A stretch of DNA of 47,189 nucleotides from a virus (taxonomy: Duplodnaviria; Heunggongvirae; Uroviricota; Caudoviricetes). The first letter of the stretch is position 1. Each line of letters opens with the position of its first letter. The DNA lies in the IMG/VR virus record IMGVR_UViG_646311924_000019; one strand, 5' to 3'. This document shows positions 36,691 to 41,915 of this stretch, piece after piece. The notes under the pieces were generated by a model. It saw nothing but the letters and a program-made list of their open reading frames with translations, searched no databases and had not been told where the DNA came from. Position numbers and translations under genes: made by a program.

Positions 36691-37035
36691 TTACTTTAAT
36701 AATTTCAGTGCCTTTACATCAACTTCAACACTGCTCAGGTCTTTATCAATTTCACCCTCAATTCTTACTTTGTCTTTCGGAGAAACATTCTGCCCGGCCC
36801 ATACGCTGTCATCAATATCCGTGACAATTGTCCCGCTATTGTCACGAAACTCATAACGTTCATCACCCACTTTTTTAACGATGCTCCCTTCAAGGATAAC
36901 CCATGCATCATCCTTCAGTTCTTTTGCCTGCGCTACTGTTGAACGCTCTGCTTCTGGCCCCTGGAAACCACCCTGCTGTGCAAAAGCGCCAAAAGACACA
37001 CCGGAAATAAGTGCTGCAATCAATACCTTTTTCAT
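36691..37035 (-). CDS. YgiW/YdeI-family periplasmic OB-fold protein
   Basis: 114-aa ORF with signal peptide, close to E. coli YgiW as recalled; AGAGGA Shine-Dalgarno. Confidence 0.8.
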   Translation of the reverse strand: MKKVLIAALISGVSFGAFAQQGGFQGPEAERSTVAQAKELKDDAWVILEGSIVKKVGDERYEFRDNSGTIVTDIDDSVWAGQNVSPKDKVRIEGEIDKDLSSVEVDVKALKLLK

Positions 37036-39347: not shown

Positions 39348-40064
39348 TCACCGCTGCTGTTCTCTGGTGGCGGTAATATCCCGGAGAATATCCCGGCACT
39401 TGTTCAGCTCCCGCAGCGCGGCGCAGACTCGCTCCCACTTCTGAACCTGACCTTTTGCCCGGCGCAGCTCGCGGTTAGCCACATGCAGCGATGGTAAAAT
39501 CAGACCATCCGGATGCTTTCTGGTGAACGACGGCTGTGACTGCACTGTGACCGCCACACTTTCCGTTTTTATTTCTTCCTGTGTTTCCGCTTCCCCGACT
39601 GGTAACGCAACACCTGCTGGCTGAGGAAAGGCTTTACCATCCGTTTCCGCTATGGATGCGGCTTTCGGCTCTGCCGGTAAATCAGCGCCCGGTATGCAGT
39701 ACCGAAATTTACCGCCCTGATTCACGCGAATCAGACGCCCTTTGCTGATTGCCATGGCCAGTGATGAATTCGCCCGGCGGGAGGTAATCCCGAACATCAG
39801 GGCCAGCTCATCCGCCGTTTGTGGGCCATGATGTTCAATCGCCTCAGTCAGCATTTGCGCTGTCACTTTCGGTACCGGTGACACTGGTTCACTTTCACCA
39901 GCCTGAATCAGCCACCACATCGAACCCTTGTTATCCGCTTCACCACGGCGCTTCAGTTTCCACAGTTCGTTGACAGCATCTTCGCGGCTGATTCCAAGGC
40001 GCGATGCCACTACCTGTGAAGAGGCTTTTTTCAGTGCTTTCAGTGCGTCAAATACAGTTTCCAT
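39348..40064 (-). CDS. Hypothetical protein, possibly winged-helix
   Basis: 238 aa from the ATG at 40064 with GGAGGA Shine-Dalgarno; track ORF starts at an upstream TTG. Confidence 0.6.
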
Positions 40065-40085
40065 TAAAACGTCCTCCAACAAAAA

Positions 40086-40832
40086 TTACTTCACAACCCT
40101 CTGATTGCTGACATTTGGACGCCAGCTATCCCAGTTAAACGTCACCCACCGACCACCGTTCATGGTCATGCGGTCCATAATCCTCTCACCAAGAAGCGTG
40201 CTCATTGCGGCATGATTCAGGTTTGTTAACATCCCGACACTGCACAGTGATGCTGTCCGGCGATCAATTATCTGGTGTAATACCACCTGCTCGTTTTTCG
40301 TCTCCCGCTGAACGCCTATTTCATCCAGGACCAGCAAATCAACACTGCAAAGCTCCTGTAAAAATTTTTCCCCGGATTTGCCGTTGTCGTAGCTGTCATG
40401 CAACACGCTCATGACATCAGACACGGTGACGATAATCACGCTGCGCCCCTTCGCCATCAGCCGGTTACCCATCGCCGCTGCAAGGTGATTTTTCCCGGTG
40501 CCGGTTTTACCGCTGAACACAAAATTCGTGCACCCGGTCATCAGTTCGTCAGCTATGGATTTGGCCTGGCTCAGCGCGTATTTTTGCCCGTCGTTCTGCA
40601 CCTGATAATTCGCAAACGAGCATTTGCTGTGCAGAGGCTGGATGCCCGAACGATTCAGGATTTTTTCCACCCGCAACTGGTGATTCTGGCGGTTAATCTC
40701 CTCGCTGCGTTTTCGTCCTTCAACAAGTTGCCATTCCCGCCACTCCTCCACCGTCCGGTACGGTGGAACCGACGCCTGTGGTGCAAGTCTGCGAATACGT
40801 TCAAGAACCCCGGCTGCCGCAATGTTTTTCAT
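40086..40832 (-). CDS. DnaC-like helicase loader (YdaV-like)
   Basis: 248-aa ORF with Walker A GKTGTGKNHL and Walker B LLVLDEIG. Confidence 0.85.
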   Translation of the reverse strand: MKNIAAAGVLERIRRLAPQASVPPYRTVEEWREWQLVEGRKRSEEINRQNHQLRVEKILNRSGIQPLHSKCSFANYQVQNDGQKYALSQAKSIADELMTGCTNFVFSGKTGTGKNHLAAAMGNRLMAKGRSVIIVTVSDVMSVLHDSYDNGKSGEKFLQELCSVDLLVLDEIGVQRETKNEQVVLHQIIDRRTASLCSVGMLTNLNHAAMSTLLGERIMDRMTMNGGRWVTFNWDSWRPNVSNQRVVK

Positions 40833-40838
40833 GCCACA

Positions 40839-41915
40839 TCACCCCCTGAATCCCGGCGGAATTTCGGTATCCGGTTCAGAAATATGATTCACACAACGCT
40901 GGTTGTTCGTGCCGCTTACCGGGAGCAACCAGGGGTTTTCAAAATTCCGGTCCGGCCCAAAAAACGTCGTCGCTCGCTGAACAAATTCCGTTCCCGTTTT
41001 CCCGGTAGCCGCCAGGTATCTTGCGTAACGCCTCACACCATCCAGTATGGCCTCTGGTGGCACCCCCTCGCGTAATCTGGCCTTCCAGGCACTGAAAGCG
41101 GATTTCTTCGGGTTTGCCCCAGCACGCAACGGGTATTCCCGCCAGACCTGTTCGAACACATCCGGATAATCCACTCGTCCCACAGGCTGCCCGGTGTTTT
41201 CCGGGACTACCCGATCGGCTTCCCGCTGAATGGCGGAATCGGCTTCAGGCTGCTGCAGTTGGTGTGATTGCTCCGGCCTTGCGGTCATCACCTGCTGCAC
41301 AGCGCCCGAATCGGCTTTCAGCGCATACGCTGAATCGGCTTCCGGTGTCGTGCCTGCTGGCTGACCAGGATTGACGGTCTGAACATCCCCTGCCTGGTTC
41401 GTGGCGTTTTTTACGCCATGGACCATAGTGTTTTGATCTTCTTGATCTGTATCTTTATCTGTATCTTTATCTGTCGTGACTCGTCGTGACATGTGCGTGA
41501 CATTTCGTGACGCGCCGTGACAATCGCCATTTTGTTCCCGCTTTCTTTCCCTCTCTCGCTGCGCCCTCTTGCGCTCTGCAGGAGATTTTGCGGTTTGCGA
41601 AATATTGCCGTTGTCCTCTTTAAGCACCTGGCGTTTTTCCCATCCAGTGATTAAATCACCATCAAGTACCCGCCCCTGCATCGTCTGCAAAATTGAATCA
41701 ATTACCTCTTCTGTCACGTCGAGCGCACTTGCCAAATCTTCTGTCGTGACATCAATGTGACCTCGCGTGACATTTCGTGACGCGCTCACCAGGAGGTGGA
41801 TATACACTGCCATCACTGTTGCAATTGGCTGCCCTGACACCCTGGCAATTGTTCGCCACTTAGGGTCATTTGGCATGTCATGCCATAATCTGAGCCAGGC
41901 GTTAGCCATACTCAC
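40839..41915 (-). CDS. Replication initiation protein (O-like, YdaU-type)
   Basis: 358-aa ORF directly upstream of the helicase loader; contains two iteron arrays within its coding sequence; start GTG or the ATG 6 nt downstream. Confidence 0.75.
   Translation of the reverse strand: MSMANAWLRLWHDMPNDPKWRTIARVSGQPIATVMAVYIHLLVSASRNVTRGHIDVTTEDLASALDVTEEVIDSILQTMQGRVLDGDLITGWEKRQVLKEDNGNISQTAKSPAERKRAQRERERKREQNGDCHGASRNVTHMSRRVTTDKDTDKDTDQEDQNTMVHGVKNATNQAGDVQTVNPGQPAGTTPEADSAYALKADSGAVQQVMTARPEQSHQLQQPEADSAIQREADRVVPENTGQPVGRVDYPDVFEQVWREYPLRAGANPKKSAFSAWKARLREGVPPEAILDGVRRYARYLAATGKTGTEFVQRATTFFGPDRNFENPWLLPVSGTNNQRCVNHISEPDTEIPPGFRG
41440..41530. repeat. Iteron array I inside the O-like gene (candidate origin)
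   Basis: Five CGTGAC units at roughly 10-11 bp spacing, preceded by 2.5 copies of atctgtatcttt and GATC sites. Confidence 0.5.
41700..41795. repeat. Iteron array II inside the O-like gene
   Basis: Four to five GTGAC units at about 10-bp spacing; shares an exact 20-bp repeat gcgtgacatttcgtgacgcg with array I. Confidence 0.5.

Follow-up and report, generated by a model that had tools for sequence, protein, structure and literature searches.

Why should a phage gene for a replication initiator carry the same short repeat in two separate places, and does this repeat serve the protein or the DNA? The question is raised by a 47,189-nt stretch of viral DNA (Duplodnaviria; Heunggongvirae; Uroviricota; Caudoviricetes), which is stored as IMG/VR record IMGVR_UViG_646311924_000019 and is referred to as the window in the following. 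The window contains a gene for a 'phage replisome organizer' with one array of hexamer repeats in the part encoding a linker between two domains (linker array) and a second one in the part encoding the N-terminal domain (N-domain array). An initial annotation had interpreted these arrays as an origin of replication embedded in an initiator gene, an arrangement that is textbook knowledge from phage lambda, where it rests on one protein family. The analysis described here indicates that the feature is real and that it is most likely a bipartite origin; comparisons of homologous genes support the view that the repeats behave as functional DNA sites inside the initiator gene.

The hexamer CGTGAC, which reads GTCACG in the sense of the gene, is found on the plus strand at 41475, 41485, 41496, 41506 and 41516 in the linker array (spacing of 10, 11, 10 and 10 bp), and at 41745, 41766 and 41776 in the N-domain array, where a degenerate TGTGAC at 41756 completes the series (spacing of 11, 10 and 10 bp). 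An inverted copy starts 26 bp past the last unit of the N-domain array, and no further GTCAC or GTGAC is present in the 1071-nt gene beyond the arrays and this copy. The clustering is far from random: five copies in 50 bp and eight copies in 320 bp are located on one strand, while the maximum in 300 dinucleotide-preserving shuffles was three for either span, and CGTGAC ranks highest when hexamer clustering is compared across the whole 47-kb window. Both the positions and the shuffle test thus agree with the initial annotation, which had described CGTGAC arrays at helical-turn spacing at both sites, and the flanking elements that it listed for the first array, 12-bp repeats (41440-41474) and two GATC sites (41435 and 41444), are also present. 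Two details had to be refined. The second array is a clustered repeat as proposed and consists of three perfect units, one degenerate unit and the inverted copy, and the sequence that is common to both arrays is exact, with a length of 21 rather than 20 bp (Table 1). A second block, the 11-mer TCTGTCGTGAC, occurs at 41470 and 41740 and is therefore offset by 270 bp as well. Because this offset corresponds to 90 codons, the peptide ASRNVT...VTT[DE] is encoded twice, which accounts for the repeated RNVT segments mentioned in the initial annotation. The linker array codes for CHGASRNVTHMSRRVTT, where the disordered linker begins. The N-domain array codes for ASRNVTRGHIDVT, which covers the end of helix 29-45 and a loop predicted with low confidence (residues 46-55) ahead of the helix-turn-helix.

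Table 1. Elements of the predicted origin and associated genes; positions refer to the window unless an accession is given.
Feature	Position	Strand	Description
Initiator gene ('phage replisome organizer')	40839..41909	-	356 aa from the ATG at 41909
N-domain array	41745..41781	-	GTCACG at gene nt 129, 139 and 160; degenerate GTCACA at 149
Inverted core copy	41713..41718	+ (GTCACG)	CGTGAC in gene sense; codons D64-V65-T66
Shared exact 21-bp block	41495..41515 = 41765..41785		offset 270 bp = 90 codons, reading frame unchanged
Linker array	41475..41521	-	five GTCACG units at gene nt 389, 399, 409, 420 and 430
A/T-rich tract	41428..41474	-	ACAGATAAAGATACAGATAAAGATACAGATCAAGAAGATCAAAAC in gene sense, encoding DKDTDKDTDQEDQ; predicted DNA-unwinding element
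Palindrome	41395..41425	+	13-bp stem, 5-nt loop; far side of the A/T tract
DnaC-like helicase loader gene	40086..40832	-	directly downstream of the initiator gene
Locus L130	Escherichia coli O157:H7 NZ_CP064167.1, 423689-424732		N-terminal module with a different C-domain, annotated as DnaT-like

Synonymous sites reveal whether such repeats are maintained as DNA or as peptides. The codon usage was compared in 20 GTCACG-type homologues, whose first 110 codons can be aligned gap-free and which originate from hosts with a GC content of 34% to 69%. The codons that form the hexamers are fixed (V47 is GTC, T48 is ACG, G50 is GGT and V54 is GTC in 20/20 sequences, H51 is CAC in 19/19) or nearly fixed (A43 is GCG in 18/20, S44 is TCA and T55 is ACG in 19/20 each); the spacer codon R49 is represented by four different codons, and invariant residues elsewhere in the N-domain use three to six codons each. 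The normalised codon entropy amounts to 0.067 for the eight hexamer codons compared to 0.795 for the 56 other conserved codons (Mann-Whitney p = 5e-6), and the pairwise third-position identity is 0.94 for hexamer codons versus 0.42 for the others, the third positions outside the hexamers being saturated in these homologues. The inverted copy is frozen, too, with V65 encoded by GTG in 17 of 17 sequences. All three reading frames of the hexamer are used for translation, giving V-T, x-S-R-x and [G/C]-H-x (frame counts for the linker arrays: 21, 23 and 26), and the RNVT peptides are therefore a by-product of the DNA repeats and not their cause. On a shorter time scale, a set of 53 near-identical E. 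coli alleles shows variation at one of 54 hexamer bases, compared to 119 of 1071 bases gene-wide. A scan of viral contigs retrieved at least 583 relatives; the 80 loci that were kept are all 98-100% identical E. coli loci and were used for microvariation only. These patterns show that both arrays are under purifying selection at the DNA level and that about 40 bp within the gene for a DNA-binding domain are frozen synonymously because they double as DNA sites, which is a case of dual coding.

The arrangement is not restricted to the window. A protein alignment of homologues that are 51-100% identical to its initiator revealed repeated peptides at two fixed places, which are lineage-specific and match within each protein; homologue P0094, for instance, combines TQVNAGVTQSNA in its loop with TQGNAGVTQSNA in its linker. 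The comparison at DNA level drew on 44 loci of a collection with one genome per species, on five contigs of metagenomic or genomic origin and on a prophage of O157:H7 (individual loci are given as L numbers). In 31 of 36 genome loci examined and in L125-L130, both places, at gene nt ~129-165 and ~380-480, hold the locus's own core motif. Two arrays are found in Escherichia, Shigella, Serratia, Rahnella, Aquitalea and Bordetella as well as in Pseudomonas, Acidovorax, Chromobacterium, Gilvimarinus, Sphingomonas and others. GTCACG-type loci contain 147 copies of the core, and 76 of 103 array intervals measure 10 bp, 22 measure 11 bp and five deviate from this. The linker array comprises one to six own-core copies in the homologues (most have two to five) and is always located immediately ahead of an A/T tract. 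The inverted copy recurs at gene nt 192 in many GTCACG-type homologues. The N-domain array, which encodes a low-confidence surface loop of variable length among homologues, is expanded to six units in L130 and L002, and it is absent from L027, L029 and L034, which belong to A/T-rich hosts, and from L040 and L042, which carry an inserted extra domain. The two-array layout, which had been regarded as an oddity, is consequently a conserved, co-varying trait of a large family: the N-domain family comprises 2,239 protein clusters at 50% identity across Proteobacteria, and the N-terminal module is encoded in 2,077 of 5,426 complete E. coli genomes (about 38%), O157:H7 prophages included, with none of the model phages carrying the domain.

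The two loci with the extra domain are peculiar in themselves. The N-domain homologues of L040 (2501-3691) and L042 (2501-3805), from Serratia and Pantoea, contain an inserted domain of ~100 amino acids, which gave a weak MUG113 Pfam match for L040 (E 0.0036) and no match for L042. In place of the loop array, ACTACG/CGTAGT repeats are present at gene nt ~326-370 and 640-660.

The sequence of the core differs between lineages, and it does so in both arrays at once. Three classes can be distinguished: GTCACG in 23 of the 36 genome loci (including L024) and in L128-L130, GTAACG(C) in L021, L025, L031, L033, L125, L126 and L127, and CGAACG(C) in L028, L030, L032 and, weakly, L038. In every locus, the core class is identical in both arrays. 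On an N-domain tree that was built without the loop, the core classes are polyphyletic, which implies several joint switches of both arrays. The N-domain of L031 (GTAACG), for example, is 83% identical to that of L010 (GTCACG) and only 67% identical to that of L125 (GTAACG), and L024 (GTCACG) is 84% identical to L021, L025 and L127 (GTAACG). The core does not follow host taxonomy either, as the range of GTCACG extends from E. coli to Bordetella and that of GTAACG includes Pantoea, Marinobacter and Sphingomonas. The longest block common to both arrays comprises 21 nt in the window, 27 nt in L125, 39 nt in L126 and 8-11 nt in most loci; the long exact blocks in some lineages point to gene conversion or recent homogenisation of the two arrays. 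The N-terminal ~150 codons, which include both arrays and the tract, recur with different C-domains and neighbours: DnaC/IstB-like loaders are encoded beside this module in the window, L033 and L125-L128, and lambda-P-like loaders in L003, L129 and the O157:H7 locus L130. As C-domains and loaders vary while the arrays travel with the N-domain, the latter is the only constant candidate for the binding protein.

The low-coordinate side of the linker array directly abuts the A/T-rich tract, whose GC content of 0.33-0.35 is the minimum of the gene. Across 31 loci, the 45 nt past the last linker iteron have a mean GC content of 0.33 compared to 0.54 for the loci, and values of 0.29-0.36 are retained even where the host GC content is 66-69%. 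Codon choice in the tract is skewed (GAT:GAC 99:7, AAA:AAG 90:23) in comparison to the N-domains of the same genes (144:142 and 54:73), showing that the tract itself is under DNA-level selection. It is built as a hexamer or 12-mer repeat of the type (A)GATAA/(A)GATAC, and near-identical E. coli alleles differ in the number of copies of the 12-bp unit GATAAAGATACA, with two copies in the window, three in L063 and L067 and four in L077; additional units add DKDT repeats to the protein. No comparable tract follows the N-domain array, where only a modest dip in GC content to 0.375 is seen at 41680-41719. A promoter scan gave a single weak match inside the array, which is no better than expected by chance.

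On the far side of the A/T tract lies a palindrome with a DNA folding energy of -10.9 kcal/mol (z -4.9). Including two G.T pairs, its stem is unbroken on the plus strand, and a T-rich run comes after it, so that the element resembles a terminator. It is retained in L125-L129, whose proteins are 51-57% identical, and L129 shows a double compensatory change from TT/AA to CC/GG that also alters the amino acids. The palindrome could be a third element of the origin or an antisense terminator; the order of iterons, A/T tract and palindrome is similar to that of lambda ori. The pairing of direct hexamers with the inverted one in an RNA or DNA hairpin was considered as well and rejected, as it is not conserved across the motif classes. 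A 302-amino acid allele found in E. coli chromosomes (P0020) has lost most of the linker array, the A/T tract and the palindrome by an in-frame deletion and presumably belongs to an origin-dead cryptic prophage. Elsewhere in the window, at 36819-36846, a perfect 9-bp inverted pair, CGTGACAAT and ATTGTCACG, 9 bp apart, has the sequence of the first linker iteron and its flank. It is located within an ORF (open reading frame) of 114 amino acids (36691-37035, minus strand) with a signal-peptide-like start and is probably due to chance.

Given this layout, the initiator gene probably holds the origin of the phage, with the linker array and the A/T tract as its core and the N-domain array as an auxiliary element. 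In the proposed mechanism, monomers of the N-terminal winged-helix domain would bind the five linker iterons, the predicted core initiator-binding sites, head-to-tail on one face of the helix, and the duplex would open at the adjoining (GATAAA/GATACA)n tract. The C-domain of the initiator would then recruit the DnaC-like loader and the host helicase. The N-domain array together with the inverted copy would serve as a second, auxiliary binding locus for the initiator and would cooperate with the core array, either by increasing the local initiator concentration or by looping of the ~220-bp spacer. The N-domain, both arrays and the A/T tract would thereby form one exchangeable specificity module of ~450 bp. 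The data show the repeats, the purifying selection on both arrays and on the tract at the DNA level, the co-variation of the arrays, the domain layout and the gene context; binding by the N-domain, the start of replication at the initiator gene and a positive action of the second array are inferred.

Several observations weigh against this reading. The N-domain array is dispensable within the family, since five relatives do without it. Furthermore, no DnaA box (with up to one mismatch) was detected near the arrays, and no IHF consensus. A plasmid collection did not yield any small or minimal natural replicon made of this module; the matches were large plasmids, mislabelled chromosomes and ~51-kb Pseudomonas records. 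The third core base is mixed within an array in the L021/L025/L127 clade, and this position may thus not be read. Phasing between the two arrays is not demonstrable, because the Rayleigh R values of 0.38-0.54 are confounded by shared spacer ancestry. A literature search did not retrieve binding or replication data for any family member. Finally, gene conversion could produce part of the co-variation without any selection for specificity; conversion alone cannot explain the general conservation, however, as most loci share just 8-11 nt.

A stronger version of the auxiliary model, which we regard as tentative, is an obligatory bipartite origin. Here, the initiator bound to both arrays would bridge or loop the ~220-bp spacer, and the ~450-bp module, which would lock the specificity determinant together with both sets of its sites, would switch its specificity as a unit. 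Within this scheme, the nascent N-domain may be captured in cis, and, in its most extreme form, the iteron-encoded loop may even help to read the iteron.

Less probable, though still worth considering, is a negative or switching function of the N-domain array, which might act by titration, handcuffing, autoregulation from pR or fork stalling as at SPP1 oriR. The sequence data fit such a function equally well, as they reveal selected sites in both arrays and not the sign of their effect. The N-domain array is part of a gene that is transcribed, and it lacks a selected A/T tract behind it. Control by a detached second set of iterons has precedents in P1 (incA) and F (incC). Among phages, SPP1 oriR is such a set (PMC6316719). 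On the other hand, copy-number control is not obviously needed by the origin of a lytic-phase phage, and some lineages have lost the N-domain array while keeping the same regulatory gene context. In addition, the extra iterons of Stx phages act positively and are required for efficient replication (PMC7466680). The helper role is favoured for these reasons: the Stx iterons are needed for efficiency, and a lytic replicon hardly requires copy-number control.

That the N-domain array has no function of its own, being an internal duplicate of the origin array that landed in a tolerant loop and is maintained by gene conversion, seems improbable. The exact 21-mer of the window and the 39-nt and 27-nt blocks of L126 and L125 fit a duplication, as do the in-frame offset of 270 bp, the lack of the array in some relatives and the variable length of the poorly predicted loop. 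In most lineages, however, only the hexamer and two to five flanking bases are shared, so that conversion is not ongoing there, and the hexamers of the N-domain array are fixed at identical codons despite saturation of the surrounding third positions. Synonymous conservation extends to the inverted copy at gene nt 192. Similarly low, and marginally lower, is the probability that the arrays are bound by another host or phage factor for a purpose unrelated to the initiation of replication. Binding by the initiator is itself a prediction, and N-domains that are 83-84% identical outside the loop are combined with different cores, which would suit a foreign binder; the core motif is, however, independent of host taxonomy, the arrays accompany the N-domain while neighbouring genes and C-domains change, and the combination of iterons, A/T tract and loader gene is the layout of an origin. 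Selection on the peptides themselves (SRNVT or CH..SR) or on RNA structure is very improbable: although ASRNVT..VTT occurs twice in the protein and 41 of 106 family representatives have peptides of at least four residues in common between loop and linker, one and the same protein uses the hexamer in all three frames, synonymous codons are fixed while spacer wobble bases are free, and the possible pairing of direct with inverted copies is not preserved in the GTAACG and CGAACG classes.

The ORF of the initiator gene spans 40839-41915 on the minus strand, and its start was set to the ATG at 41909 on the basis of the homologues and a GAGGTGA ribosome-binding site. A Pfam search of the protein returned nothing at E<=0.01; at E<=10, the matches were limited to HTH_Crp_2, Phage_rep_org_N and PhyR_sigma2, of which Phage_rep_org_N aligns over its full length with a sub-threshold E value of 0.13. 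The protein falls into phrog_3729, 'replication initiation protein' (E 1.6e-257), with weaker PHROG matches to 'replisome organizer' and 'DnaD-like' in its N-part and to 'DnaD-like', 'replication protein' and 'primosomal protein' in its C-part; NCBI names its cluster 'phage replisome organizer'. No Rep-family match was found in Pfam or NCBIfam. An AlphaFold model built from 17 homologues predicts a winged-helix N-domain (residues 1 to ~100) with confident helices at 2-14, 16-25, 29-45, 56-63 and 67-77 and the low-confidence loop 46-55, followed by a basic helix (110-126), a disordered region (127-244) and a helical C-domain (245-330). A Foldseek comparison with the PDB gave no significant hit (best E 0.76), and a profile-based search of the PDB sequences reached no E value lower than 0.28. 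The protein matches NCBIfam DnaT with its last 24 amino acids only (E 0.0015) and gives primosomal protein 1 in the PDB at E 0.36. The DnaT domain PF17948 is present in relatives whose C-part is related over 40-54% of the query at 69-90% identity, and the C-part of L033 matches this domain with an E value of 4.7e-19. The initiator is probably a distant member of the replisome-organizer family. Its gene occupies the position of lambda O without being a homologue of O; the designation as 'O-like' in the initial annotation is appropriate for position and architecture and does not extend to homology.

The disordered linker contains a third repeat family, AAGCCGAT in gene sense, with four copies at 41334-41341, 41310-41317, 41238-41245 and 41214-41221, which encode EADSA peptides; alleles P0004, P0006, P0010 and P0016 have in-frame deletions between these repeats. 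The loader encoded downstream of the initiator gene matches Pfam IstB_IS21 (2.8e-19), NCBIfam PRK12377 (5e-153) and DnaC (4.5e-89) as well as phrog_50. It is directly followed by a DUF1627 gene (39348-40082), which also lies behind the P-like loader gene of the O157:H7 locus and may be a conserved companion of the replication module. Upstream of the initiator gene, a cII/YdaT-like gene, a cro/YdaS-like gene and a divergent repressor gene are found. In L032, which derives from a metagenome bin labelled Terracidiphilus, a 388-amino acid ORF (717-1883), a candidate DNA polymerase sliding clamp, lies upstream of the initiator homologue, with one ORF in between.

A full-text literature search found neither a description of the origin of this initiator family nor experimental work on any of its members. 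The initiator of the window represents a family that is different from that of lambda and very common in prophages, and this family offers an unusually clear example of dual coding, in which frozen synonymous sites change in concert with a second array at a distance of 270 bp. Provided that the arrays prove to be sites of the initiator, they would yield a rule for the annotation of origins in thousands of prophages, and GTCACG, GTAACG and CGAACG would be natural specificity variants in which the co-evolution of initiators and iterons can be followed. The role of a second iteron array in a lytic replicon could then be addressed by synonymous recoding in a tractable system. An obligatorily bipartite origin, if borne out, would amount to an architecture that has not been described before, and about 38% of complete E. 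coli genomes and more than 2,000 protein clusters across Proteobacteria would share it.

How does this arrangement compare to known replicons? In iteron plasmids such as P1, F and R6K, Rep proteins with two winged-helix domains bind iterons of ~19-22 bp, which are spaced by about two helical turns, and a second array serves copy-number control in these stably maintained replicons. P1 (incC/incA) and F (ori2/incC) have two intergenic arrays per initiator near its gene, which interact by looping or handcuffing. The initiator of the window differs from these systems in that it lacks a Rep-family match and in the iteron period of 10-11 bp. The satellite phage P4 is closer in one respect: its ori and crr are two separated clusters of one short, octamer-type iteron, as opposed to the ~20-bp iterons of plasmids, and both are bound by the initiator and needed in cis. 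The P4 initiator is the primase-helicase alpha, however, and ori and crr are kilobases apart; to our knowledge, neither of them lies within the part of alpha that encodes the DNA-binding domain. More generally, we know of no second iteron set that is located inside the coding sequence for the DNA-binding domain of its own initiator and is subject to such synonymous constraint. The DnaD N-terminal domain and DnaD-like phage helicase-loader adaptors are also among the closest known systems. A further one is phage SPP1, whose gp38 (G38P) binds direct repeats in its own gene (oriL) beside an A/T-rich unwinding element and, when bound to a second repeat set at oriR, was proposed to trigger the switch from theta to sigma replication (PMC6316719). 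The system described here resembles SPP1 in having an initiator that is probably of the replisome-organizer type and direct repeats in the initiator's own gene next to an A/T-rich element, with binding predicted in the present case. The differences are that oriR is intergenic, ~13 kb away and equipped with its own A/T-rich element, while the N-domain array lies 270 bp away in the same gene with no selected tract, and that the similarity of the N-domain to Phage_rep_org_N is sub-threshold.

We know of no second array of this kind in lambda, to which the initial annotation had compared the locus. The lambda origin consists of iterons and an A/T tract inside the O gene, in the part encoding a flexible linker between an N-part that binds DNA and a C-part that binds the loader, and the number of iterons is four in lambda and six in Stx phages, whose efficient replication depends on the additional ones (PMC7466680, PMC6022878). 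The predicted origin of the window likewise lies in DNA encoding the inter-domain linker (codons ~130-160), with iterons followed by an A/T tract, and the gene order of cro, cII, initiator and loader is the same. The lambda-like part of the original interpretation, an origin embedded in the initiator gene, is supported by sequence comparison for the layout and by the conservation at DNA level; the type of iteron and the protein are different. The initiator shows no homology to O (Phage_rep_O), and the loader is DnaC/IstB-like instead of lambda-P-type. The iterons of lambda are inverted repeats of 18-19 bp that are bound by dimers, whereas those of the window are direct repeats with a 6-bp core every 10-11 bp. 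As the initial annotation had rightly pointed out, two separated arrays depart from the lambda arrangement, with the second one placed 270 bp upstream in the coding sequence of the DNA-binding domain.

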